Source: Deltaproteobacteria bacterium (GTDB lineage: Bacteria > JACQOV01). From it: 64,000 nt of DNA. Where the stretch lies: positions 1,335 to 65,334 of the forward strand of contig JACQOV010000095.1 of NCBI GenBank assembly GCA_016202395.1. Direction: 5' to 3'. The first letter of the stretch is position 1. Every line of letters begins with the position of its first letter. Below, piece by piece: positions 3,726 to 63,219 of this stretch. The position numbers and the translations under genes were made by a program. The notes under the pieces are model-generated. The model did not search any database, had not been told where the DNA came from, and worked only from the letters and a program-made list of their open reading frames with translations.

Positions 3726-3793
3726 GTCATCCCCGCGAAAGCAGTGACCCAGTCTTATGGATGTTACTGGATCCCCGTTCTCACGGAGATGAC
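3726..3793. repeat. Two degenerate REP-like units (GTCATCCCCGCGAAAGC... and GGATCCCCGTTCTCACGGAGATGAC) in the tig-clpP intergenic region
   Basis: Same hairpin-plus-ATGAC architecture as the units at 6141-6234, 58829-58945 and 60488-60512. Confidence 0.6.
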
Positions 3794-6140: not shown

Positions 6141-6234
6141 GTCATCCCCGCGGAAGCGGGGATCCAGTTCTTTCAATGGACTGGATTCCCACTTTCGTGG
6201 GAATGACATGGGTCCCCGTTTTTACGGGAATGAC
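6141..6234. repeat. Cluster of three REP-like palindromic units, one inverted and two direct
   Basis: Unit 6141-6165 is gtcatccccgcggaagcggggatcc. Unit 6183-6207 is ggattcccactttcgtgggaatgac. Unit 6211-6234 is gtccccgtttttacgggaatgac. Each is a short hairpin followed by (G)GRATGAC. Confidence 0.75.
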
Positions 6235-50010: not shown

Positions 50011-50484
50011 GTGGATATGAGCCGTTTTCTGAAGAGAGGAATCTTAGTCGTTCTACTCCCTGGGTTGCTGGGGATGGGGACATTCTCCGTCAACCCTCAA
50101 GAGGTTCCGATGCCGGAGGATAATTTTAAGGTCAAAGTGACCGATGATCTGGGGATCGTCACTGAAGTAAAACATTTCACCTGCGACGGCGACACCTCCG
50201 TTGCCGCGGAAAGAGGGAAAGCCCATTTGAGAATCCCTCTTGGAAATATTCAAAGAGTGAAGGTCTCCGCCGAGGACTCCTCTACAATGGAGAAAGTGGA
50301 GATCCAGGTCACGCTGAATGAGGGAACAACACTCACTGCGATCGGGATGGCAAAACAACGATGCCAAGGGATTACAATCTTAGGAAACTATTCGATCAAA
50401 TTCTCGGAGATTCGCTCTATTGAAGTGATCGCCTTGGAGCGCGCTAAACCTCTTAACGGGGGCGAGTTTCCTCCAACCAATTAA
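50011..50484 (+). CDS. hypothetical secreted protein
   Basis: 157 aa with a signal-peptide-like N-terminus. No motif. Confidence 0.4.
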   Translation: MDMSRFLKRGILVVLLPGLLGMGTFSVNPQEVPMPEDNFKVKVTDDLGIVTEVKHFTCDGDTSVAAERGKAHLRIPLGNIQRVKVSAEDSSTMEKVEIQVTLNEGTTLTAIGMAKQRCQGITILGNYSIKFSEIRSIEVIALERAKPLNGGEFPPTN

Positions 50485-51544
50485 GAATAAAAGGGAAAAC
50501 TTCTTTGGGAGCGGATTCCCCCACCAGGAGATCGCTATGGCCGTAATCGATAGAATCCCCATTGGCACGACTGAACTCACGGAACACCTTTTCAGAAGAA
50601 CCCAGATGTTCGTAGGCGTAAAGAACCGCCTCCGTCGGGGCTAAGTGATCCACATTCCCAGCGATAATTAAAGCGGGAGCCTCAATTCGATAGAGATTTT
50701 TTTGATAACTCCATTGACGATCCACCCTTCGAAAATCTTTGGAGTCGATCCAATCGAGCCACTGCTCAAATTCTGCCGTCGTGACAGGACTTGGCACGTT
50801 CGCCAACGCATACCACACCATCTGACGCGTCACGTTGTCAGGATTGAGCATGAGATGAGCAAACCAGGTGTTGGGAGGAATCAGGAGGAGAAAAGGGAAA
50901 AACCACCGAGATAAGGTTTCAACGTACAAGGCATCCCACGGCCCTTTCACAAAGTTTTGGGCTAATTTGCGAGCTTCAGGCCGAAGCTCAAAAAAATCGT
51001 GAAGATAATCAAAACGAGCCGGGGATCCGGCAGTCACGATCCGCAGGGAAAAAGGGGCGGAGTGTGTGGAGAGATAAGCATAAATCGCCATCCCCCCTAA
51101 ACTGTGACCGATCCAAACCAGATCCGAGGATTGAGCATGCTCTGAAACAAAATGAAGGACCGCGGGGAGATCTTGAAAAACGTAATCATCAAAGGTCCAG
51201 TTGTATGGGGCCTTCCCTCCCCCCACGCGATGGCTGTTTCCTGCTCCACGACGCTCCACCACCCAAGCCTCATACCCACTTCGCCAAAGGAAACGGGCTA
51301 AACTGTACTTTTCATCCAGATCGAGATTAAAGCGGTTCGCCCCCAATCCATGACAAAGGATCACCGTCCCCTTCGGTTCCCCCTCCGTTGGATAATGGTA
51401 GAGGGGCAAAATCCACCCGTCGTCCGTGGCGACATCGTATCGCTCCGGCGCTGGGATCTCTAGGCGATAAAAAGAACGAAGGATAAATGAAAAAAGAGGG
51501 ATTAACAAAAAACAAATTAAAATTAGCACAAAGTATTTCATCAT
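50453..51544 (-). CDS. alpha/beta-fold hydrolase (tandem paralog 1)
   Basis: Nucleophile elbow GHSLGG. N-terminal TM/signal. Confidence 0.75.
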   Translation of the reverse strand: MMKYFVLILICFLLIPLFSFILRSFYRLEIPAPERYDVATDDGWILPLYHYPTEGEPKGTVILCHGLGANRFNLDLDEKYSLARFLWRSGYEAWVVERRGAGNSHRVGGGKAPYNWTFDDYVFQDLPAVLHFVSEHAQSSDLVWIGHSLGGMAIYAYLSTHSAPFSLRIVTAGSPARFDYLHDFFELRPEARKLAQNFVKGPWDALYVETLSRWFFPFLLLIPPNTWFAHLMLNPDNVTRQMVWYALANVPSPVTTAEFEQWLDWIDSKDFRRVDRQWSYQKNLYRIEAPALIIAGNVDHLAPTEAVLYAYEHLGSSEKVFREFSRANGDSIDYGHSDLLVGESAPKEVFPFILNWLEETRPR

Positions 51545-51556
51545 GGCATATCTTTT

Positions 51557-51610
51557 CCCCTCACCCTTTTCCCTCTCCCCGCTAAGCGGGGAGAGGGTAG
51601 GGGTGAGGGG
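51557..51610. repeat. 54-bp GC-rich palindromic element, family B, copy 3
   Basis: cccctcaccc-tttt-ccctctccccgc-taag-cggggagaggg-tag-gggtgagggg, nearly perfect. Lies between the two hydrolase paralogs. Confidence 0.8.
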
Positions 51611-52762
51611 TCAAAAATCGGTTTGATTGAGCCAACTCACAATAAAGGGAAACACCTCATAGGGAGCCTCTCTTCCCAAAATAAGATCGATATGACCATA
51701 ATCGTCTCGATCCCCATTCCATCGGCCAAATTCCCGAAAAGTTTTCTCCGTGGAAGAGGCCTGTTCGTACGCGTAAAGAACTGCCTCCGTCGAGACAAGA
51801 TTATCGACACTCCCCGCAATAAAAAGGGCCGGGACATCCATCTTAGAAAGATGATCTCGGTAACTAAATTTTCGATCGGCAGCTCTAAAATCGCCCGAGG
51901 TCGCCCAATCATACCATTGCCGCCATTCCAATACCGGGAGATCCTCCCACGAATTGGCGTGCAACTGCCAAAAGTCCCTTTCATCCAGGTTTTCAGGATT
52001 AAACAACACGTGCCACAACCATTGATCATGAGGAGAGACCATGAGCCAGGGATAAAATGTCCGCGCCAGAGTTCTCAACGGCAAGGTTTTGAGTGGGCCA
52101 TTAACCGACCGCCACGCCACCTTTTGGAGCAAAGGGTTCCTTTGGAAAAAATCATGAAGATATTGAAACTCTCCTGGAGAGGCGATCGAAACCAATCGAA
52201 AGGGGGGCTCCACCTCATGGGTCGTGAGATACGCATACATCACCATGCCGCCCGCGCTATGCCCTAGCCACACCAGGTCCGAGGTCTTTGCCTGTTGTCG
52301 AACAAACTTTAAGATGGCTGGGAGATCTTTCACCACATAATCATCAAAGTTCCAATCGTAAGGTTTTTTAGCCCCACCCATTCGGTGGCTATTTCCTGCC
52401 CCACGTCGTTCCATCACCCAAGCCTCATAGCCTTCTCTAGCCAGATACCGAGCCAGGCTGTTCTTCTCATCGAAATCCAGATCAAACCGGTTCACAGACA
52501 AACCGTGGCAGAGGATCACGGAGGCTTTCGGTTTCGTCACCCCTTGCGCCGGATAGTAGTAAAGAGGCAAAACCCATCCATCTTCCGTCACCACCTCGTA
52601 TCGCTCTGTTTCGGCCGTCTCCAAGCGATAGGATGCGGGAATAAAACAGGCCGAGAAAGGCAAGAGAACAAGAAGAGTCTTGCATAGAAGGAAAAGAGGC
52701 CGCATCGGATCTCTTTTAAGGAATCCGGACAAGGCTAGGAAGCTCATCAAAACCTCGATCAA
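51611..52762 (-). CDS. alpha/beta-fold hydrolase (tandem paralog 2)
   Basis: Nucleophile elbow GHSAGG. About 50% identical to paralog 1 across the full length. Confidence 0.75.
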   Translation of the reverse strand: MIEVLMSFLALSGFLKRDPMRPLFLLCKTLLVLLPFSACFIPASYRLETAETERYEVVTEDGWVLPLYYYPAQGVTKPKASVILCHGLSVNRFDLDFDEKNSLARYLAREGYEAWVMERRGAGNSHRMGGAKKPYDWNFDDYVVKDLPAILKFVRQQAKTSDLVWLGHSAGGMVMYAYLTTHEVEPPFRLVSIASPGEFQYLHDFFQRNPLLQKVAWRSVNGPLKTLPLRTLARTFYPWLMVSPHDQWLWHVLFNPENLDERDFWQLHANSWEDLPVLEWRQWYDWATSGDFRAADRKFSYRDHLSKMDVPALFIAGSVDNLVSTEAVLYAYEQASSTEKTFREFGRWNGDRDDYGHIDLILGREAPYEVFPFIVSWLNQTDF

Positions 52763-53111
52763 AAGAGAAGATCCTTTCGATTTTTAAACGTTTCATTTGG
52801 GCCGCATGAATCGCATCTCGAGCCGAGAGATTCGGATAAGAAAAAAGAATATCCTTCGCAGAAAGAACATCGTGTTCTATCATGGGATACACCTCATCGA
52901 CCATCCCATATAAGGCATCAAAAGCGGGTTGTATGGCTTCCTTGTTTTGAACAGCCGTGTACCGGTGCATGATTTCCTGAAAGACCTCCGTATTGGTGAC
53001 AAGTCGCTCTTTTTCGCTAACCAACCTTTCTAGCAGGATTTTGGCCTCTCTTTTACACGGATGATCACCGCCAATCAGATACATCGGGACGTTGGAATCG
53101 ATGAAAATCAC
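52716..53111 (-). CDS. vapC: PIN-domain toxin (VapC family), second copy
   Basis: MIFIDSNVPMYL N-terminus with PIN acidic residues. Confidence 0.75.
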   Translation of the reverse strand: MIFIDSNVPMYLIGGDHPCKREAKILLERLVSEKERLVTNTEVFQEIMHRYTAVQNKEAIQPAFDALYGMVDEVYPMIEHDVLSAKDILFSYPNLSARDAIHAAQMKRLKIERIFSFDRGFDELPSLVRIP

Positions 53112-53353
53112 CCGAGATATCCTTTTTCGATTTCATCCAACATGCGATCGATATCGGCGGTAGGAAAATGATGTTTATAGGCAACACGAATGCTGTCTAA
53201 CTTTTGAGAAGGATCCCTGCGAGACTTCTGCTCCACCGTCTGGCGCAAAATTCGACGCACCCATTCCCCTAGACTCAAACCTGCTTGGTGAGCTAGGGTC
53301 TGAAAAGTGCGATATTCCCTGGGAGCCATTAAAACTTGTAATCTCTTACTCAT
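53108..53353 (-). CDS. antitoxin for VapC (small DNA-binding protein)
   Basis: 81-aa ORF immediately upstream of vapC with overlapping stop/start. Confidence 0.55.
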   Translation of the reverse strand: MSKRLQVLMAPREYRTFQTLAHQAGLSLGEWVRRILRQTVEQKSRRDPSQKLDSIRVAYKHHFPTADIDRMLDEIEKGYLG

Positions 53354-55350: not shown

Positions 55351-55845
55351 ATGGCTCCCCTGCCTATTCGGCTCTACCCCGATCCTTTGCTAAAAAAAGT
55401 CGCGCAAGAAGTGGCGCAATGGGACTCTTCCTTGCAATGCCTGATCAACGATATGATTGAGACTCTCTACCATTCTCCCGGTGTGGCCCTCGCGGCCCCT
55501 CAAGTGGGGCATTCGATTTGTCTCACCGCAATCGATGTTTCCAGGAGTCCTCGAGCAGGGGAAAATCATGGGCTGATCATCCTTATCAACCCTCGAATTA
55601 TTCAATGGGAAGGGGAACACCGATTTCGGGAAGGGTGCTTAAGCGTTCCAGAATTTTTGACGAACTCGGTTCGGGCAGAAAAAGTTCGAGTGAAAGCTTT
55701 GAATCGAAATGGAATTCCTCAAGAGTTTCATTGTGAAGGATTAGAAGCCATTGCCGTGCAACACGAGATCGACCATTTTGAAGGCAAACTCATCCTCGAC
55801 CACGTCCGTTCCCCCCGCGACCTCTTCCGCCGAAAAGAGCGTTGA
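55351..55845 (+). CDS. def: peptide deformylase
   Basis: Motifs GVALAAPQVG, EGCLSVPE and QHEIDHFEG. Confidence 0.9.
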   Translation: MAPLPIRLYPDPLLKKVAQEVAQWDSSLQCLINDMIETLYHSPGVALAAPQVGHSICLTAIDVSRSPRAGENHGLIILINPRIIQWEGEHRFREGCLSVPEFLTNSVRAEKVRVKALNRNGIPQEFHCEGLEAIAVQHEIDHFEGKLILDHVRSPRDLFRRKER

Positions 55846-55908: not shown

Positions 55909-57066
55909 TTATCTTATAATTTCACCGGACCAAAGTTTCCTTAAAAAATCTAAAACGGGTAAAACTTCCATCTCCTCGAAAACAGCTTTCCGTTCTCCAC
56001 CAAACACTCCATAGCCCTTTACTTTTGTCTTTCCCATCTCCTCACAAACCATCTTTAAACCGCGCTGATAACGACTTTCCCACCGTGTCCCTACTTTGCA
56101 TTCTATGGCAACGAATCCCTTCTGAGTTTCAAAAAGAAAATCCACTTCGACTCCATTGTGGTTGCTCCAAAAATAAACAGGATACCCTAATTTGGAATAA
56201 GTCATGTAGGCCCTCAATTCGTGCAAAATCCAGGTTTCCAATAAAGGACCTAACTCTTCCTGCGTAGGAGGATACGGCAAACGTTCCGACAACGCACGAA
56301 CCACTCCAGAATCGAAAAAATAAAATTTAGGATGAACAACCTGCTTGGTAGCTCTCTTGAGTTTCCAGGGGAATAACCAAGATCCGACTAAAGTATCTAT
56401 TAGAATATTAAAATAGCCCTGCACCGTCTGACGAGCTACTTGTGCATCTCGTGAGATCCCTGACACATTGGTGACTTGACCATTTTGGCGAGCGGCTATC
56501 TCCAAAAAACGACCAAAATGACCAATATTTTGAGTCAAAGCTTCCCCTTTGATCTCCTCCCCTAAGTAAACCTCAGCATAGGTTTTTAAATAGGATCCCG
56601 GATCCGATCCAGTCACAGCCATGGGCAACATTCCATATTGCAAAATCCGAAACGGCTCCATCTTGAATTCTATCTCGGCAGACACCAATGGAAAAAATTG
56701 CGCCATTCGAGCCCTTCCCGCTAAAAGGTTAGTCCCTCCGCGCTTCAACTTTCTGGCGCTCGAACCACAAAGAACAAATCGAATGCGATGTTTCTCTATG
56801 AGACGATGAACCTCATTCAACAAATCCGGAACCTTTTGAACCTCATCCAGAACCACCCAACTGTTGGGTTTCAAAGGATGAAGCTCCCTATACAAAAGCC
56901 CCGGCTCTTTGCTCAATCGAAGAGATTCTTCGGTATTCAGCAAATCATAGGTTGGAACATCCCGAAAATTCTGGTGAATCCACGTGGATTTTCCTGTCCC
57001 ACGAGGCCCCAAAAGAAGGATGGACGTTTCAGGCACTTCTAGGATTCTTGTATACATATACAGCAA
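55909..57066 (-). CDS. AAA family ATPase with C-terminal DUF4143-like domain
   Basis: Walker A GPRGTGKST; about 385 aa. Confidence 0.7.
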   Translation of the reverse strand: MLYMYTRILEVPETSILLLGPRGTGKSTWIHQNFRDVPTYDLLNTEESLRLSKEPGLLYRELHPLKPNSWVVLDEVQKVPDLLNEVHRLIEKHRIRFVLCGSSARKLKRGGTNLLAGRARMAQFFPLVSAEIEFKMEPFRILQYGMLPMAVTGSDPGSYLKTYAEVYLGEEIKGEALTQNIGHFGRFLEIAARQNGQVTNVSGISRDAQVARQTVQGYFNILIDTLVGSWLFPWKLKRATKQVVHPKFYFFDSGVVRALSERLPYPPTQEELGPLLETWILHELRAYMTYSKLGYPVYFWSNHNGVEVDFLFETQKGFVAIECKVGTRWESRYQRGLKMVCEEMGKTKVKGYGVFGGERKAVFEEMEVLPVLDFLRKLWSGEIIR

Positions 57067-57105
57067 TTATACTGGAAATATGCTGTATGTCAATGCATTT
57101 TTAGG

Positions 57106-58833
57106 TTAAGCGATTTTGTGGCGTTTGCCTTGGAGGTAGTCGATGAGAAGGTATTGTCCCAAGGTGTCGGGGCGCGTGAAGAAGGAGCGGCCTTTGTTAA
57201 TGCGGGTCATCTGCTCCACAAAAGCGACGAGGGCTGGCTCTTCATCCAACATGAAAGTATTGATCTTAATCCCCGCTCGAGTGCAACGCTGAACCTCTCG
57301 CAAAGTCTCTTCAGAAGCTCGCGGGCTCACCCCCATCACCGGCCATTCCACATGCAGTTGCCCCTCTTGAAAATAACAAGTCGGCTGGCCATCGGTAATG
57401 ATAATGATCTGCTTGTTGGCATGGGGCTGGTGGCTCAATATCTTAGAGGCCAAACGCAGGCCATCTTGCAGATTGGTCCAGGGATCCCCCAAATTAATGT
57501 CGAGCATCGGGAGATCTTTCGATTTTAATTCTATCGCTGTTGTGAAAAACCCAACGATGTGAAAATCATCACGGGAAAATTTGGTTCGGATCAAATGGTC
57601 TAGAGCGAGCGAAACCTTCTTGGCCGCATGAAATTTATCATTCCACGACATCGACCAACTCATGTCCAAAAGGAGAACGGTGGCGGAACGGGTCGTCTGT
57701 TCCGATTCAAAAACCTCAAAATCTTTTTCGCGGAGTTCAATCGGAAAACGGATGGAATTGGAACGGGAGAGCGCGTTCTTAAATGTCTCAACGTAATTCA
57801 GGTGAAAGGGATCCCCATACTGATAGGGCCGACTCCCCTCATACGAAATACTCTCCACCCCTCTCCGGTACAACTCGTGACTCCCAATGCGATCTTTCTT
57901 CAACGAAGCATAGATGTCCTTTAGGGCCTTTTGACCGATCCGTCGAATCCCTTTGGGAGTGAGCTCGAGTCGTCCCCCCGCAAGCTCCAGGTAACCATAC
58001 TCCTCCAAAACCTGAGAAAAACCGGCCAAGGCCTTCATCTGTCCAACCGCTTGCGGGCCTAAAATTTCACCCACCTCTTTTTCGGAGACAGAGCTCAAAT
58101 CCCCAATCTGCATCGATTGCTCCATCGATTTCATCTTTTTAAAGAGCTCCATCAACTCCAGCCCCTTCACAAAATCGGCCGCCTCTTGCCCCTGAAACCG
58201 CTTTCCATAGCGATCGATGAAATTCTCTAACACCTTGACCGCTTGAAGAGAGCCTTTGAGCTTTTCGAAATCTTTTTTGGCCTCGGGATCATTAAACGGA
58301 TAACGATCCAACGCCTCGATCGACTGGCTTAAAGAATGGGGCAGATGATCGAGATGATCTTGACGACGGGAGATGTCATGGGTATGGCGCAGACGCTCCT
58401 TCTCCAGTTTCTCTCGTTCTTCGGAATCTAAATCGCTCTTTTTTTCTTTTTCCCCAATCTCTTGAAGTTTTTGTTGAAGAGTCTTCTCCAAACTCCGTTT
58501 TTCCTTGCTCAAAACATCCTGCAACTTTTGGCGGATCCCTTTTAAAACATCCTCTAAATGATAACGATTAAAAATCTCTTGCCGCTTCTCCTGAAGTTTG
58601 CCCAGGAGATCGCTCAATCCTGAAAAACGCAGGTTGCGCTCTTCCAGAGAGAACCCATCCCACAGGAGACGATCCAATCCCCACTGGACCTCTCCAGAAT
58701 CGGCGATCCGTTCCATAAGCTCGTCAAATAAATTCCCCGCATCCCCCTCCGACCATATCTGAGAGCCATCCCACCGGCTGTATCGATATCTTTCTTTCAC
58801 TCCACCTCCATAAATAGGGTCCCTTATCGTCAT
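57106..58833 (-). CDS. VWA domain protein with long N-terminal coiled-coil/acidic region
   Basis: 575 aa. C-terminal VWA with MIDAS motif DMSWSMS. The ATG lies inside a REP unit, so the true start is uncertain. Confidence 0.7.
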   Translation of the reverse strand: MTIRDPIYGGGVKERYRYSRWDGSQIWSEGDAGNLFDELMERIADSGEVQWGLDRLLWDGFSLEERNLRFSGLSDLLGKLQEKRQEIFNRYHLEDVLKGIRQKLQDVLSKEKRSLEKTLQQKLQEIGEKEKKSDLDSEEREKLEKERLRHTHDISRRQDHLDHLPHSLSQSIEALDRYPFNDPEAKKDFEKLKGSLQAVKVLENFIDRYGKRFQGQEAADFVKGLELMELFKKMKSMEQSMQIGDLSSVSEKEVGEILGPQAVGQMKALAGFSQVLEEYGYLELAGGRLELTPKGIRRIGQKALKDIYASLKKDRIGSHELYRRGVESISYEGSRPYQYGDPFHLNYVETFKNALSRSNSIRFPIELREKDFEVFESEQTTRSATVLLLDMSWSMSWNDKFHAAKKVSLALDHLIRTKFSRDDFHIVGFFTTAIELKSKDLPMLDINLGDPWTNLQDGLRLASKILSHQPHANKQIIIITDGQPTCYFQEGQLHVEWPVMGVSPRASEETLREVQRCTRAGIKINTFMLDEEPALVAFVEQMTRINKGRSFFTRPDTLGQYLLIDYLQGKRHKIA

Positions 58834-58945
58834 TCCCGTGCAAACGGGAATCCAGTTCTTTTTACTGGATTCCCACTTCCGTGGGAATGACGTGGATCCC
58901 CGTTTTTACGGGGATGACCTGGATGCCCGCTTCCGCGGGCATGAC
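58829..58945. repeat. Cluster of four REP-like units, one inverted and three direct
   Basis: 58829-58853 gtcattcccgtgcaaacgggaatcc. 58867-58891 ggattcccacttccgtgggaatgac. 58894-58918 ggatccccgtttttacggggatgac. 58921-58945 ggatgcccgcttccgcgggcatgac. Confidence 0.8.
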
Positions 58946-58955
58946 GTTGGGAACA

Positions 58956-60380
58956 TTAACTGCGATATTGTGTTTTGTCCCCTAAATTCTGCTTATTGAG
59001 CTTGTTGTTGAGATGCAACCCTTCCAGAATGAACTCGATGGCAGAGGCTTTCAGGCCGGTCGTGCGATCCGCCTCCAGTTTCTTGAGGGCCTCTTCAAGC
59101 GCTGGAACCTCTTGAAGCAGATCGAGATAATCTTGCGCCGACATCTCTTCGGAGACCTCCATCACACCGCCACTTTCAAACGATTCGAGGAGCGGGTGGA
59201 ACTGATCTACCTTAAAATATCGATCGAACACCGCGCGAACGGCTTTTCGAATCAAGTTCTGAATGATCTCTCCTTCCCCTTTCTCCTCCCCCGAATACTC
59301 CAGCTCGATCTTCCCCGCGGTGGTTGCCATCAAAGCTCGCAAGTCGCTCACTCGAGGGGCAATCTCCGATTCCCCCAAATGCAACGCTCGCTTTTCCGCA
59401 TTGCTAATGAGACTCTCGTAGTTGCTAATTGACATCCGAACGCTCACACCCGATCGCTGATTGATCTCAGAGGCGCGACGAGCCAAGAAGGTGAGCTCCA
59501 CAAGGATCTCTTTCATGAAAGGGGGCACTGAAAGTTCCAGCGAGGTGTTAAAAGAACGCCGCTCCTGTTCCACAATCTGAATCTCAATTTGAGGATCCCT
59601 CGGATAGTGAGTCCGAATCTGGGCTCGATAGCGATCTTTGAGTGGAGTGATAATTCGTCCTCGGCTTGTATAATCCTCTGGATTGGCTGTAGCCACCACA
59701 AAGACATCCAGGGGAAGTCGGACCGGAAAACCTTTGATCTGAACATCCCGTTCCTCCATAATGTTAAAGAGTCCCACCTGCACCTTCTCGGGAAGATCCG
59801 GAAGCTCATTGATCGCAAAGATCCCTCGATTCACTCGTGGGATTAAACCAAAATGGATCGCCATTTCATCGGAAAGATACCTCCCCTCCGCCAGCTTGAT
59901 CGGATCGATCTCTCCAATAAGATCAGCAATCGTCACATCGGGGGTGGCCAACTTCTCGGAATATCGCATGGAGCGATGGATCCAGACGATCTCCACCCGA
60001 TTCCCGAGTTCAATGACCTTGAGCTGACATCGCCTGCAAATGGGGACAAAAGGGTTGTCATTGATCTCACAACCTTTGATGATAGGGATGACCTCATCGA
60101 GCAACCCCACTAATCCTCGAATCAGTCGCGTCTTGGCCTGTCCGCGTTCTCCCAGCAAAATCATGTCGTGCCCCGCCAAGATCGCATTCTCGATCTGCGG
60201 AACCACGGTATCCTGGAAACCGAGTATCGTTGGGAAGAGCGGCTCCTTCTCTTGAAGTCGCCGGATCAGATTGTGACGCATCTCCTCCTTAATCGATACC
60301 ACCGAGTAACCTGAGGTTTGCAGTTCTCCAAGGGTTCGGATCTCCTCTTTGTAACGTAAAATTTCTTCGGGGGAATTCAT
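58956..60380 (-). CDS. AAA+ ATPase of the ChlI/MoxR-like clade, partner of the downstream VWA protein
   Basis: 474 aa. Walker A-like GERGQAKTRL, sensor VVATANPEDY and arginine-finger region. Confidence 0.65.
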   Translation of the reverse strand: MNSPEEILRYKEEIRTLGELQTSGYSVVSIKEEMRHNLIRRLQEKEPLFPTILGFQDTVVPQIENAILAGHDMILLGERGQAKTRLIRGLVGLLDEVIPIIKGCEINDNPFVPICRRCQLKVIELGNRVEIVWIHRSMRYSEKLATPDVTIADLIGEIDPIKLAEGRYLSDEMAIHFGLIPRVNRGIFAINELPDLPEKVQVGLFNIMEERDVQIKGFPVRLPLDVFVVATANPEDYTSRGRIITPLKDRYRAQIRTHYPRDPQIEIQIVEQERRSFNTSLELSVPPFMKEILVELTFLARRASEINQRSGVSVRMSISNYESLISNAEKRALHLGESEIAPRVSDLRALMATTAGKIELEYSGEEKGEGEIIQNLIRKAVRAVFDRYFKVDQFHPLLESFESGGVMEVSEEMSAQDYLDLLQEVPALEEALKKLEADRTTGLKASAIEFILEGLHLNNKLNKQNLGDKTQYRS

Positions 60381-60487
60381 CGGTTTTTGCCTCCTTTTCT
60401 TATTTTACCTCTCTATGCCCTGAAAAGACATGCAAAAAGCATGCCTCGGAGGAGAAACCAAATAATGATTTATTTTCAATGGGTTCT

Positions 60488-60512
60488 GGATCCCCGCTTA
60501 CGCGGGGATGAC
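60488..60512. repeat. Single REP-like unit ggatccccgcttacgcggggatgac
   Basis: Same family as 6141-6234 and 58829-58945. Confidence 0.75.
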
Positions 60513-60564
60513 AGAAAACTGTAACTTTTTGGCACAACTGGCTCAAACTTGTCCTGAGAGCTCC

Positions 60565-63219
60565 CTACCGAAGGAAAAGGGCAAACTCCTCCTGCAGCTC
60601 CCTAATCTTCTTCGTTCCGGTCGGGGGAAGCTTCCATCGATATTCCACTTTATCCTCCTCTTCCACGGCAGATCTCAAAATCGCCCCCTCCTCTTCAAAA
60701 AAGGAAAGGGCCTCTCGAATCAGAACAGAGGAGATCGATTCCCGACGCAAAACGTCCCCCAACGCATAAAGCCGCTCGCAGAACCGCTGAATGCCGCGAA
60801 GGATCTCTTTCTCTTCCAGATCCTGAAAACGGTGGTAGGCAATGGCCTTGGCAACCGCTAAATATCCTTCCAGAAAGTTCTCGATCAGCCCTCGATTTCG
60901 ATGCAATCGGTGGAGCCCGCGACGCAGGAGAACTACCGACTGAGAGTCCTTTCGCTGAAGGAGCCCCGTTTCCACAAAATAGCTCAACCAATGATGAAAG
61001 CTGGATTCACTGCCCCCTCCCTCCAACCAAAAGAACTCTTTTCGAAGCAGCTGACAAAGCCGATGGTATCTTTGAAGAGCGTGATCTAAAGGGATCTCTT
61101 CCTCTTCGTAACTCAATAGAGCCGTGGCTGCCAATCCCATCCCTAAGAAAAAATGGATGATGTTATTTTTATAGTAATCCAGTTTTTTTCGCTCCCCTTC
61201 ATTCACATAGTAAACCGAAAAATTGTCGATCGTGAGAGAACGAACCAAGCCGCTGCGCTCTAGAATCTGAACCCCTTGAGAAAAGGCGGCTTCAAGATTG
61301 TTAAATGCCTCGGAGATGCGAATTCCCTCTTTTCGAAACCGATCGACATGGAACCGAAAACGGAGAAGCAACTCCTCTTGCGAAATTCCACGCTTCGTAT
61401 GAGAAAGGAGTAGAATCGAAAGGAGGGCCATGGGGGTGACCGTGGTCACTCGATTAATCCCTCTGCAAATCTCAACTCCCAGATTTTGCACTACCTCTCG
61501 GAGTGGATCTTCATTCGTCGCAGTCCCAGGGATTAGGGCGGATTGGCTTAAGTGTAAAGGTTCCCCAATCTGCACATAAACACGTCCAAATTTCTTCACC
61601 AAAAAGCGCCCTGCCTTCACAATCACTCCAATCGATTCGGCCTCCTTCTGCTTCCCTTCCAGCTCCTCCGTGTAAGCCCTCTCCTCAAGAATCCGCTCAT
61701 AAGCGATGGAAATCGGGACGAAAGCCACATCCTGCCGAATCTCCTGGCCCGCTCGAACGATCATCCCTAAAAGCCCCAACTTGGGAGGCAACATTTTCCC
61801 CGTCCGACTCCGAGTCCCCTCGATAAAAAACTCCAGGGGATGGCCGCGCCGAACCAAGGTTTTGAGATATTTTTCCAGAAGCAGACTGTAGAGACGATCC
61901 CCTCGGAACGAACGACGGATGAAAAAAGCCCCCGCCGAGCGGAACATAGGCCCTAAGGGCCAGAAGGAAAGATTAATCCCCGCGGCAATATGGGGAATCG
62001 TCATATCTCTCTGATAAAAGAGATAAGCAAGAACGAGATAATCGACATGACTGCGGTGATTGGGAAGCAGAACAATGGTGCGATCTTTGGCAAGCTCTCG
62101 AAGCCGCCGAAACCCCTCTTCATCGACAGAAAGCCCTTCAAACAAGCGTTTCCAAATAAAAGTGAAAAGGAGATAGAGAAACTCCACCCAACGAGGGTTG
62201 TAATCGGCAACGATCTCTTTTAAAATTTTGCGCGCCTCTTTCTCAATCTCCTCCAAAGGCCTCTCTTGCTCTCGACCGATCTCGATCAGTCCATCCCGAA
62301 CCTCTCGGAAACCTAAGAGATCCTCGATCACTTGAGTCTGAGAACGTCGAGGAGGCCCCGAGATTACCCTCTCTTCTCGCGCCAGATGGTAACGAAGCAT
62401 GAGCCAGAGTTTTCGAGGGGCATGGGCAATCTCCCCTTGCTCACGCATCCCTTGTAGAAAATCTCGAAGAGGGACTGCCTCCGCGAAATGGACCGTGGCC
62501 CGGTTGAAGTTCCTTAAAAAAATCCCAACTTTACGCAGTTTGCCCGGATAATCGGTGGCCCCAAATAGGATATCGGTGAGAGAACGCTCTAACCTTTTGG
62601 GACGTTTGTGCCAAAAGATAATCTGAGGAACAAGATAGATGGGGCGAGAAACCTCTTGCTGAAGGCGAACCAAGGCCTGTTGAAGGCTTTCCCGTTCCTC
62701 CTGGGTTGGAAATTTTAAGAAGGTCCGAGAGCTTCGCATGAAAATAATCGAGCTTTCCCCCGCTTGCGTGACCGAGGTCAAAAAATCGGCCTCCGCGTAT
62801 CCTCGAAAGCGTCGAATCCCCAATCGAGCCAAGATCAACGCAATGGCGCGACGCAATACCTGCCAAAGAGGACGCCAGAAGATTGTTCGAATCCCGTTGG
62901 CGAAACGGGCCACCGGGAGCCCTTCTTTTTGATAGAGGAAATTAAAGTAGAGATAGTCGATCACACTGGAGGTTCGCATCACATAGAGAACGACCCCTTG
63001 GTTGGCGAGCTCACGCAGCCGATCGATCTCTTCCAGTGACACCGTGAACCGACGGAAGAAGGGGCTCAAGCACTCCATAAAGAAACGGGCAATAAAACTT
63101 CTTGGACCCAGAAAATGAACATCGTCTCGAGGAGGGAAAGGGAGCCGGGGCTCACGAAAAGGGAGCTCTTCTTGACTTAAATCTTGACGTCGATTAGACT
63201 TTTTCTTAGCAAGTTCCAA
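60565..63219 (-). CDS. plsB: glycerol-3-phosphate 1-O-acyltransferase
   Basis: 884 aa. Acyltransferase motifs NHRSHVDYLVL, FIEGTRSRTGK and PISIAYE. Confidence 0.85.
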   Translation of the reverse strand: MELAKKKSNRRQDLSQEELPFREPRLPFPPRDDVHFLGPRSFIARFFMECLSPFFRRFTVSLEEIDRLRELANQGVVLYVMRTSSVIDYLYFNFLYQKEGLPVARFANGIRTIFWRPLWQVLRRAIALILARLGIRRFRGYAEADFLTSVTQAGESSIIFMRSSRTFLKFPTQEERESLQQALVRLQQEVSRPIYLVPQIIFWHKRPKRLERSLTDILFGATDYPGKLRKVGIFLRNFNRATVHFAEAVPLRDFLQGMREQGEIAHAPRKLWLMLRYHLAREERVISGPPRRSQTQVIEDLLGFREVRDGLIEIGREQERPLEEIEKEARKILKEIVADYNPRWVEFLYLLFTFIWKRLFEGLSVDEEGFRRLRELAKDRTIVLLPNHRSHVDYLVLAYLFYQRDMTIPHIAAGINLSFWPLGPMFRSAGAFFIRRSFRGDRLYSLLLEKYLKTLVRRGHPLEFFIEGTRSRTGKMLPPKLGLLGMIVRAGQEIRQDVAFVPISIAYERILEERAYTEELEGKQKEAESIGVIVKAGRFLVKKFGRVYVQIGEPLHLSQSALIPGTATNEDPLREVVQNLGVEICRGINRVTTVTPMALLSILLLSHTKRGISQEELLLRFRFHVDRFRKEGIRISEAFNNLEAAFSQGVQILERSGLVRSLTIDNFSVYYVNEGERKKLDYYKNNIIHFFLGMGLAATALLSYEEEEIPLDHALQRYHRLCQLLRKEFFWLEGGGSESSFHHWLSYFVETGLLQRKDSQSVVLLRRGLHRLHRNRGLIENFLEGYLAVAKAIAYHRFQDLEEKEILRGIQRFCERLYALGDVLRRESISSVLIREALSFFEEEGAILRSAVEEEDKVEYRWKLPPTGTKKIRELQEEFALFLR

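Follow-up and report, generated by a model that had tools for sequence, protein, structure and literature searches.

NorQ/NorD and CbbQ/CbbO are two-gene modules in which a MoxR-class AAA+ protein and its VWA partner serve metal insertion into, or reactivation of, a client enzyme. In the NorQD complex, a finger lies in the pore, the C-terminal tail sits on the post-sensor-1 loop, and there is one NorD per NorQ hexamer (PMC9976466, PMC13036017). A core pair of AAA+ chaperone and vWA co-chaperone is also found in the vWA-MoxR ternary systems, which are recognized by a conserved third component, variable C-terminal effector domains and diversification (PMC7159879, Kaur et al. 2020). The chelatase subunits BchI/ChlI and BchD/ChlD, and the fused chelatase-like model TIGR02442, represent a further group. 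Finally, Mycobacterium tuberculosis carries the pair Rv0958/Rv0959 (MSMEG_5512/MSMEG_5511 in Mycobacterium smegmatis), whose ATPase Rv0958 goes by the name 'possible magnesium chelatase'. In the literature searched, members of this last family have high-throughput mentions only, and no client, interaction or ATPase activity is described for any of them.

We studied an AAA+/VWA gene pair in a stretch of 64,000 nucleotides from a deltaproteobacterial contig, hereafter the window. Both genes lie on the minus strand. The ATPase gene (58956..60380) encodes 474 aa, and a Shine-Dalgarno sequence, AGGAGG, is read at 60390..60395 (minus strand), 9 nt before its ATG at 60380. The longest open reading frame of the VWA gene (57106..58833) starts at ATG 58833 and encodes 575 aa. 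The sizes and positions of both frames given in the preliminary description match the open reading frame list exactly, but the longer VWA start is disfavored, and the gene most likely starts at GTG 58800 (57106..58800, 564 aa). A GGAGG lies 4 nt before this codon (58805..58809, minus strand); homologues align from residue 16 of the 575-aa frame onward only; the NCBI protein P0121 is 100% identical over 564 aa to the product started there; and ATG 58833 falls within the last copy of a repeat described below.

The neighbors are those named previously. On one side lie a DUF4143/AAA_14 ATPase gene downstream of the VWA gene (55909..57066, minus strand) and a peptide deformylase gene (55351..55845, plus strand; EGCLS and HEIDH motifs read directly), and on the other lies plsB (60565..63219, minus strand; Pfam Acyltransferase and GPAT_C domains). 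The G+C content of the pair is that of its flanks, and an Rfam scan of 56800-60800 found nothing. A consensus scan placed a perfect sigma-70 promoter only past the VWA stop codon, ahead of the DUF4143 gene, and no terminator-like site on the sense strand between the ATPase and VWA genes, which are probably still co-transcribed.

Judged by domain content and gene order, the pair is an ordinary copy of the widespread, already catalogued Rv0958/Rv0959-type module and not a new system. With the mycobacterial pair it has in common the domain set of the VWA partner: Mb0984_helical (PF27532), Rv0959_3rd (PF27098) and VWA_2 (PF13519), the first two being precomputed assignments for P0121, whereas a local Pfam scan gave VWA_2 alone (E 6e-8, residues 385-483). 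The same three domains are present in all 120 listed VWA homologues. PF27532 is named after Mycobacterium bovis Mb0984 and PF27098 after Rv0959. The novelty implied by the preliminary description is thus not borne out, as the VWA protein bears domains already named for these proteins. Immediately upstream, on the same strand, is an ATPase of the group of about 465 aa. We infer that it belongs to the Rv0958 orthologous group from the Pfam family names, gene adjacency, annotations and length, the Mycobacterium marinum orthologue being encoded by a gene of similar length (1,392 bp; PMC11237697). The window copy differs in that repeat elements part its two genes, and in that a reduced coiled-coil part makes its VWA protein short, at 564 aa versus 668-754 aa in Chloroflexota.

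The earlier characterization of the two proteins as a ChlI/MoxR-like AAA+ ATPase and a VWA-MIDAS protein is correct, and the motifs GERGQAKT, VVATANPED and LLLDMSWSMS are found in the translations. In the alignment of ATPase homologues (A1), Walker A (GERGQAKT, residues 77-84) maps to 60129..60152, Walker B (IFAINE, residues 187-192) to 59805..59822, and the segment from sensor 1 (N233, VVATANPED) to the arginine finger (R250, LKDRY), defined by invariant columns, to 59631..59696, all on the minus strand. K83, E192, N233, R250 and R315 are invariant. The protein therefore has the features of the helix-2-insert clade (ChlI/MoxR/MCM), namely the Walker A Lys, Walker B Glu, sensor 1 Asn, Arg finger and sensor 2 Arg, with one exception: the canonical Walker B Asp is replaced by Asn191, which is invariant in A1 and shared by 19 of 22 diverse family representatives. 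Together with the invariant Glu192 and Asp195 it forms a family signature, NELPDL. In 31 of 42 close homologues, Ala stands in place of the Gly that precedes the Walker A Lys. An insert after strand beta-2 carries three cysteines, C104, C115 and C118 (60027..60071, minus strand; A1), invariant among close homologues and found in just 7 of the 22 diverse representatives. The AlphaFold2 model (pLDDT 77) adds two further marks of the clade, a pre-sensor-1 beta-hairpin at residues 213-220 and an insert after helix 2 at residues 144-181, the most conserved segment of the protein and one modeled with low confidence.

Sequence comparison places this ATPase closest to the chelatase motors. Its PDB and NCBIfam matches are exclusively ChlI, BchI and BchD, the best solved relatives being ChlI (8osf, E 1e-10) and BchI, and a PDB profile search returned no MoxR, RavA, CbbQ or NorQ chain at E <= 1. 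Pfam families AAA_5, AAA_3, Sigma54_activat and Mg_chelatase match weakly over residues 140-250; for AAA_3 (PF07726, MoxR) the score is 27.1 bits, at a cut-off of 27, over 93 residues. By structure, Foldseek ranked MoxR 2r44 first (E 5e-7), with ChlI 8osh and NorQ 9qh9 also among the top matches. Of more than 8000 homologues scored, the top 120 show mostly 58-65% identity and are spread across phyla; those listed are typically 465-467 aa long, and more than 100 of this length, at about 60% identity, come from many phyla. Relatives at about 60% identity number in the hundreds and occur in Chloroflexota, Binatia, deltaproteobacteria, Nitrospinota and others, and at E <= 1e-30 the family forms 709 clusters at 50% identity. 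The top match, P0001 (631 aa), has an internal partial duplication and was left out. Looked up by exact match, neither of the two window proteins led to a contig on record.

The VWA domain occupies residues 362-557 in the 564-aa numbering (57130..57717, minus strand), as delimited by an alignment of 44 homologues (A2), the AlphaFold2 model (pLDDT 83) and Pfam VWA_2. Mean column identity in A2 is 60%. The DxSxS motif (LLLDMSWSMS) maps to 57652-57666 on the minus strand, and the MIDAS residues D379, S381, S383, T442 and D470 are invariant in all 44 homologues. The N-terminal half is predicted to be helical, the VWA domain reaches the C-terminus, and the C-terminal tail is conserved and basic. 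Outside the AAA and VWA parts, Pfam gave sub-threshold matches, HemN_C (E 0.03) and MgtE_N (0.002), and nothing stronger. The best structural matches of the VWA domain are those of NorD (9qhe, 9qhg, 9qh6; E 2e-7), and the TFIIH p34 and p44 VWA domains are also among them.

Adjacent AAA and VWA genes, in this order and on the same strand, are present in 61 of 81 related loci. In 11 related loci with enough sequence, the ATPase gene lacks a VWA neighbor: none occurs in the 8 kb to each side, or in as much of that stretch as the contig covers (at the shortest about 2.4 kb downstream). The partner thus need not be encoded in cis. A search for conserved third-gene partners, by clustering of open reading frames in the 81 related loci and the window region, found none, nor was one conserved in four Pfam-annotated loci (L082-L085). 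The ten recurrent neighbor families inspected, including an ABC substrate-binding protein, a cupin/HTH regulator, HIT, a TrkA-type channel, radical SAM, an AIR-synthase-like protein and PilT, all reflect clade-specific synteny. The flanks vary by clade and consist of housekeeping genes: plsB in the window and in its closest relative, L082, and in Binatia-type loci the order cmk-rpsA-hup-HIT-AAA-VWA-mutS-glnD. The view that the pair is not embedded in any obvious pathway thus holds, with no metabolic client, such as a chelatase H subunit, Rubisco or NO reductase, conserved in the 81 loci or in L082-L085. Homologous pairs therefore do not sit consistently beside a known metabolic client, the arrangement named beforehand as speaking against the preliminary description.

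The pair had also been described as flanked by palindromic repeats. These are indeed present between the two genes and upstream of the ATPase gene, but nothing similar was found downstream of the VWA gene, and only the ATPase gene is bracketed. The pattern search located four REP-like 26-nt palindromes between the genes (58829..58945), one on the plus strand (58829-58854) and three on the minus strand (58866-58891, 58893-58918 and 58920-58945), and a single one between plsB and the ATPase gene (60487..60512, minus strand). Further copies lie at 3768 and at 6141-6234. In total, the pattern GTCATNCCC-N8-GGGNATCCA has 9 copies in the window versus 0.07 expected, a number reached in none of 100 shuffles. 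As in enterobacterial REP/BIME elements, these are short, imperfect, multi-copy palindromes of about 26 nt, strictly intergenic, clustered in both orientations inside operons, with stems kept by compensatory changes; they differ in belonging to another sequence family (GTCAT-YCCCGYG-N-CRCGGGR-ATCCA). The 8-bp stems are paired at 98.6%, and double-sided changes number 10 where shuffles give 3.1, none of 500 attaining as many; the intergenic region folds as mRNA at -77.2 kcal/mol (z -6.6).

Could these repeats mark the boundary of a cassette? We rejected this, because the same repeats occur at 3768 and 6141-6234 and because L082 has the order plsB-AAA-VWA without them, the cluster being replaced there by a 9-bp gap. 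The best reading of these sequences is that the cluster represents a lineage-specific, secondary insertion of a genome-wide repeat family, rather than a conserved part of the system.

Taken as a whole, the pair is, rather probably, an ordinary member of a widespread core-genome module, a stand-alone housekeeping AAA+/VWA remodeller to which the repeats are secondary. Direct observation covers its family membership, the adjacency of the genes, the lack of a conserved third gene, and a MIDAS site and AAA+ catalytic residues that are both intact. For a mechanism, NorQ/NorD, CbbQ/CbbO and BchI/BchD offer an analogy. In this sketch the ATPase would form a hexameric ring, on which one VWA protein would dock via its VWA domain and conserved basic C-terminal tail. 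A client protein, not encoded beside the pair, would be gripped by an acidic residue at the MIDAS metal site. As ATP drives the ring to move, the VWA protein would transmit the motion through its long, helical N-terminal half and so remodel the client. The outcome could be insertion of a cofactor or metal, or release from a complex. The hairpins between the genes may make the upstream, ATPase-coding part of the mRNA more stable than the VWA-coding part, in which case a 6:1 stoichiometry of ring to adaptor would fit. The partner resembles NorD in its helical N-terminal part, linker, C-terminal VWA domain with full MIDAS and conserved C-terminal tail. Unlike in the NorQ/NorD and CbbQ/CbbO modules, no nor or cbb client gene lies beside the pair, and the ATPase differs from NorQ and CbbQ in being ChlI-like by sequence, with about 130 extra C-terminal residues and an Asn-Glu Walker B.

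The nucleotide site itself invites a different view. The family-wide Asn for Asp in Walker B and the frequent Ala in Walker A count against a housekeeping remodeller, and the ATPase may turn over ATP slowly, or serve as a switch rather than as a motor. The pair would then be an ATP-gated scaffold or regulator, possibly made redox- or metal-sensitive by the three cysteines, which are invariant in close homologues and placed beside the pore and helix-2-insert region; a precedent is NorQ, which a disulphide in the ATP site inhibits reversibly (PMC13036017). However, hydrolysis is favored by the invariance of the catalytic Glu192, sensor 1, the arginine finger and sensor 2, and the cysteines are missing from most of the wider family, so that we hold such a switch to be unlikely, if worth keeping in mind. 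We give still less weight to the proposal that the pair remodels the transcription or DNA-repair machinery. MSMEG_5512 is on a high-confidence list of proteins cross-linked near RNA polymerase, but the tagged protein recovered no DNA (PMC7092591). In loci of the Binatia type, mutS follows directly, its start overlapping the VWA stop codon by 4 bp; this adjacency is seen in 5 of 85 loci, from a few related lineages only. A winged-helix-like hairpin in the VWA protein, 'GGRLELTPKGIRRIG', also speaks for the proposal, yet its HemN_C match stays below threshold, and the similarity to TFIIH p34 and p44 is of a kind that generic VWA folds give.

Two readings suggested by database names and by published AAA+/VWA pairs fare worse, and we consider both very improbable. 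An NTP-dependent vWA-MoxR conflict system, in which the pair would sense an invader and release an effector, was an option left by the preliminary description, and AAA+/vWA pairs are indeed the core of such systems (PMC7159879). The adjoining DUF4143/AAA_14 ATPase matches the PADLOC candidate PDC-S01 (E 6e-53), and a VapBC-like pair lies about 4 kb away. However, the DUF4143 gene, with its own promoter, is missing at that position in L082, and PADLOC gave only noise for the two pair proteins. Beyond the core pair, the hallmarks of the ternary systems are absent: the loci examined contain no VMAP, iSTAND, FtsH or beta-propeller third component, no effector domain follows the VWA domain, the flanks are housekeeping genes, and, with about 60% identity between phyla, the ATPase shows the reverse of diversification. 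The conflict-system reading is thus largely refuted. The name 'magnesium chelatase' would instead make the pair the motor (I and D subunits) of a genuine tetrapyrrole Mg- or Co-chelatase. The top sequence matches are ChlI, BchI, BchD and the putative cobaltochelatase TIGR02442, to whose AAA and VWA halves the two proteins align, one half each, and in M. marinum a B12-resistance screen yielded a transposon insertion 49 bp upstream of the orthologue (PMC11237697). NCBIfam scores of 33-39 bits nevertheless fall an order of magnitude under the curated cut-offs (467-779 bits); for TIGR02030 (ChlI/BchI) the ATPase scores 38.7 against 466.95, over residues 73-280 only. No H or N (substrate-binding) subunit gene and no Mg-chelatase D subunit gene is found beside the pair, in the window or in the related loci examined. 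Moreover, the family is frequent outside phototrophs, for example in Dehalococcoidia and Mycobacterium, its Walker B is NE rather than DE, and its helical partner is without the AAA-like N-terminus of BchD. We therefore rejected this reading.

On its own, the window pair adds little, as a further copy of a Pfam-catalogued module annotated in thousands of genomes. The family is more interesting: it stays about 60% identical from phylum to phylum, occurs in Mycobacterium as well as in many environmental phyla, has Asn for the Walker B Asp, and sits in housekeeping surroundings with no adjacent client in the loci examined and no function reported in the literature searched. At its most far-reaching, and we think this improbable, the family would be a core remodeller acting on a central machine, for instance that of transcription, DNA repair or ribosome assembly, and a prokaryotic counterpart of AAA+/MIDAS machines like Rea1/midasin. 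It would have a non-canonical Asn-Glu Walker B, in this subclade a Cys triad serving as a metal or redox switch, and in the present genome a ring-to-adaptor ratio tuned by the REP hairpins. Finding the client would add a missing piece to the picture of bacterial AAA+/VWA remodellers, beside the chelatases, NorQD, CbbQO, RavA-ViaA and CoxDE, and would also mend a very common misannotation, as 'magnesium chelatase' or 'sigma-54 interacting regulator'.

The AAA+ ATPase gene lies at 58956..60380 (-) and encodes 474 aa; the VWA ORF downstream of it, in its longest form, spans 57106..58833 (-) and encodes 575 aa from an ATG at 58833. Both ORFs of the preliminary description are thus in the window, with the quoted motifs present in their translations, and the neighbours it listed are all found at their places: the DUF4143/AAA_14 ATPase (55909..57066, -), peptide deformylase (55351..55845, +) and plsB (60565..63219, -). 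For the VWA gene, the start is most likely GTG 58800, giving a product of 564 aa, because GGAGG is found 4 nt upstream, because the ORF read from this codon is the same protein as P0121, an NCBI entry from a deltaproteobacterial MAG to which the window protein is identical, and because the alignment with homologues begins only at residue 16 of the 575-aa ORF. ATG 58833 falls within a copy of a REP-like palindrome. The exact 474-aa ATPase sequence has no record in the protein collection, though its VWA neighbour on the same contig does. The G+C content of the pair region resembles that of its flanks.

P0121 carries precomputed Pfam matches to PF27532 (Mb0984_helical), PF27098 (Rv0959_3rd) and VWA_2, as do all 120 homologues among the matches listed. 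The first two families take their names from a Mycobacterium bovis protein, Mb0984, and an M. tuberculosis one, Rv0959. Rv0959 has Rv0958 as its upstream neighbour, whose annotation reads 'possible magnesium chelatase'; the M. smegmatis pair consists of MSMEG_5512, annotated 'magnesium chelatase', and MSMEG_5511, annotated 'von Willebrand factor, type A'. Judged by Pfam family names, gene adjacency and protein length, the pair is a member of this catalogued yet uncharacterised Rv0958/Rv0959 family. The ATPase family is very large, with more than 8000 candidates scored and 709 clusters at 50% identity (E <= 1e-30). Identity to the best 120 of these more than 8000 candidates is mostly 58 to 65%, with a few nearer relatives at 75 to 95%; these 120 come from Chloroflexota, Binatia, deltaproteobacteria, Nitrospinota, Dadabacteria, Ignavibacteriales and others. 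The top-scoring match, P0001, is 631 aa long and has a partly duplicated AAA module, probably an assembly artefact.

Among 81 related loci, the VWA gene is directly downstream of the ATPase gene on the same strand in 61, and near it without being adjacent in two; seven loci were too short to judge. It is absent from the fetched locus (at most 8 kb on each side, contig permitting) in 11, of Syntrophaceae-like and Nitrospinota type, in three of which the downstream reach is just 2.4 to 4.4 kb. In these loci (L005, L009, L011, L012, L014, L023, L027, L028, L030, L035 and L039), the ATPase is full-length and about 60% identical. No third conserved gene, a partner for which the preliminary description had suggested looking, came out of clustering all flanking ORFs of the 81 loci, and the recurrent neighbours are clade-specific synteny. 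In the Pfam-annotated loci the surroundings are of housekeeping type: the order is plsB-AAA-VWA in the closest relative (L082) and aroA-cmk-rpsA-hup-HIT-AAA-VWA-mutS-glnD-xerC in L083 and L085, and in L084 glycosyl-hydrolase and transglutaminase genes surround the pair. Neither a client of known AAA+/VWA machines nor a defence component was seen in the window region or in the related and Pfam-annotated loci, which bears out the initial remark that the pair sits in no obvious pathway. In L083 (8590-8593) and L085 (8587-8590), both Binatia-type, the VWA stop codon and the mutS start share 4 bp, an arrangement suggestive of translational coupling in such genomes. In L085, the ATPase and VWA genes are separated by an inserted beta-lactamase-family gene.

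The Pfam matches of the ATPase, weak and partial, cover residues 140-250 (AAA_5, 1.4e-6; AAA_3, 4.3e-6; Sigma54_activat; Mg_chelatase, 2.9e-4). Its only solved relatives by sequence are ChlI (8osf, 1e-10), BchI and archaeal LonB, and a family-profile search of solved structures returned no MoxR, RavA, CbbQ or NorQ chain at E <= 1. In the AF2 model (pLDDT 77), the AAA+ core includes a pre-sensor-1 hairpin (213-220), a highly conserved insert (144-181) is modelled at low confidence, and about 130 additional residues form a helical domain at the C-terminus; Foldseek matched the model to MoxR 2r44, ChlI 8osh, NorQ 9qh9 and LonB, each weakly. K83, E192, N233, R250 and R315 are invariant. At the Walker B motif (residues 187-192; 59805-59822, -), where the family-wide sequence is NELPDL, the family alignments show Asn instead of the Asp that coordinates Mg in 42/42 close and 19/22 diverse homologues; P0285, a divergent representative, has the canonical Asp. 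In the P-loop, 31 of the 42 close homologues have Ala for the Gly in front of the Lys. The Cys triad C104, C115 and C118 is invariant in close relatives and found in seven of 22 diverse representatives.

In the AF2 model of the VWA protein (pLDDT 83), long helices with a charged coiled-coil region (residues 62-151) and further helices are followed by a small hairpin-helix unit (271-300), a disordered linker (302-316) and the C-terminal VWA domain (362-557), the part matched by Pfam VWA_2 (6e-8). Across 44 homologues, none of the five MIDAS residues varies, and the basic C-terminal tail is conserved in their alignment. In structural comparison, the NorD VWA domains from the 2026 NorQD cryo-EM structures match best, and generic VWA domains (Rpn10, TFIIH p34/p44, Rea1-MIDAS) come next.

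The question arises as to how such a pair might work. In NorQD, one NorD serves each NorQ hexamer, inserting a VWA finger into the pore and placing its C-terminus on the post-sensor-1 loop; rotation powered by ATP stretches the linker and remodels a client that is gripped at the MIDAS site (PMC9976466, PMC13036017). The pair studied here is seen to belong to the family, to consist of adjacent genes and to keep its MIDAS site and AAA+ catalytic residues intact, and from NorQD we infer the mechanism: ATPase and VWA partner would share a NorQ/NorD-like division of labour, on a client presumably encoded in trans. With its Asn-Glu Walker B, the ATPase might instead follow a slow-switch variant of such remodelling. 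The NCBIfam matches of the ATPase are to BchI-ChlI, BchD-ChlD and the fused putative cobaltochelatase TIGR02442, whose AAA half is matched by the ATPase and whose VWA half is matched by the partner; these reach 33 to 39 bits, against cut-offs of 467 to 779. The pair may be likened to NorQ/NorD and BchI/BchD in mode of working; it belongs to neither, since it scores below the cut-offs and has no client association. The conflict-system option of the preliminary description (vWA-MoxR type, PMC7159879) is not supported, as the pair has none of the defining features of these systems.

The palindromic repeats noticed initially do exist; they flank the ATPase gene only, however, rather than the whole pair. 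The pattern GTCATNCCC-N8-GGGNATCCA has nine occurrences in the window where 0.07 would be expected, always in intergenic positions: four copies between the two genes (58829-58945), one upstream of the ATPase gene (60487-60512) and the others in intergenic gaps at 3768-3793 and 6141-6234. The 8-bp stem is maintained by compensatory changes (98.6% of cells paired; 10 double changes versus 3.1 in shuffles). The cluster at 6141-6234 is laid out like that at 58829-58945, with one forward copy, a GTTCTTT spacer and reverse copies, and single exact matches occur in two unrelated loci, L023 and L076. As the gap between the two genes in L082 is 9 bp and has no REP, and as it is 1 to 50 bp in most family loci, the cluster is a lineage-specific insertion of a genome-wide repeat. 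The inter-gene mRNA stretch (58795-58960, 166 nt) folds at -77 kcal/mol (z -6.6); no U-run follows the fold, and a consensus scan picked up nothing terminator-like on the sense strand between the two genes. In E. coli, REP/BIME hairpins keep 3' exonucleases off the mRNA upstream of them and can reduce expression of the downstream cistron. Speculatively, an effect of this kind would suit a 6:1 ring-to-adaptor ratio.

The DUF4143 gene, a match to PDC-S01, one of PADLOC's candidate defence families (E 6e-53), is a unit separate from the pair, since a perfect sigma-70 consensus promoter of its own (TTGACA-16-TATAAT, 57093..57066, -) precedes it and since it is missing at the corresponding position in L082; for the latter reason it looks like a lineage-specific insertion. 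Further along, a 131-aa PIN/VapC-like ORF and an 81-aa upstream ORF overlapping by 4 bp (52716-53353, -) look, from reading the translations by eye, like a putative VapBC-type toxin-antitoxin pair, and 50453-52762 (-) contains two paralogous ORFs in tandem, 363 and 383 aa long, that fall in one similarity cluster (cluster 521).

The literature located on the mycobacterial orthologues offers high-throughput hints only: proximity to RNA polymerase without DNA association (PMC7092591), presence in the ClpC1 interactome, an altered level in a pafBC mutant, and a B12-resistance transposon insertion upstream of the gene (PMC11237697). The interest of the pair stems from the functionally uncharacterised family as a whole.
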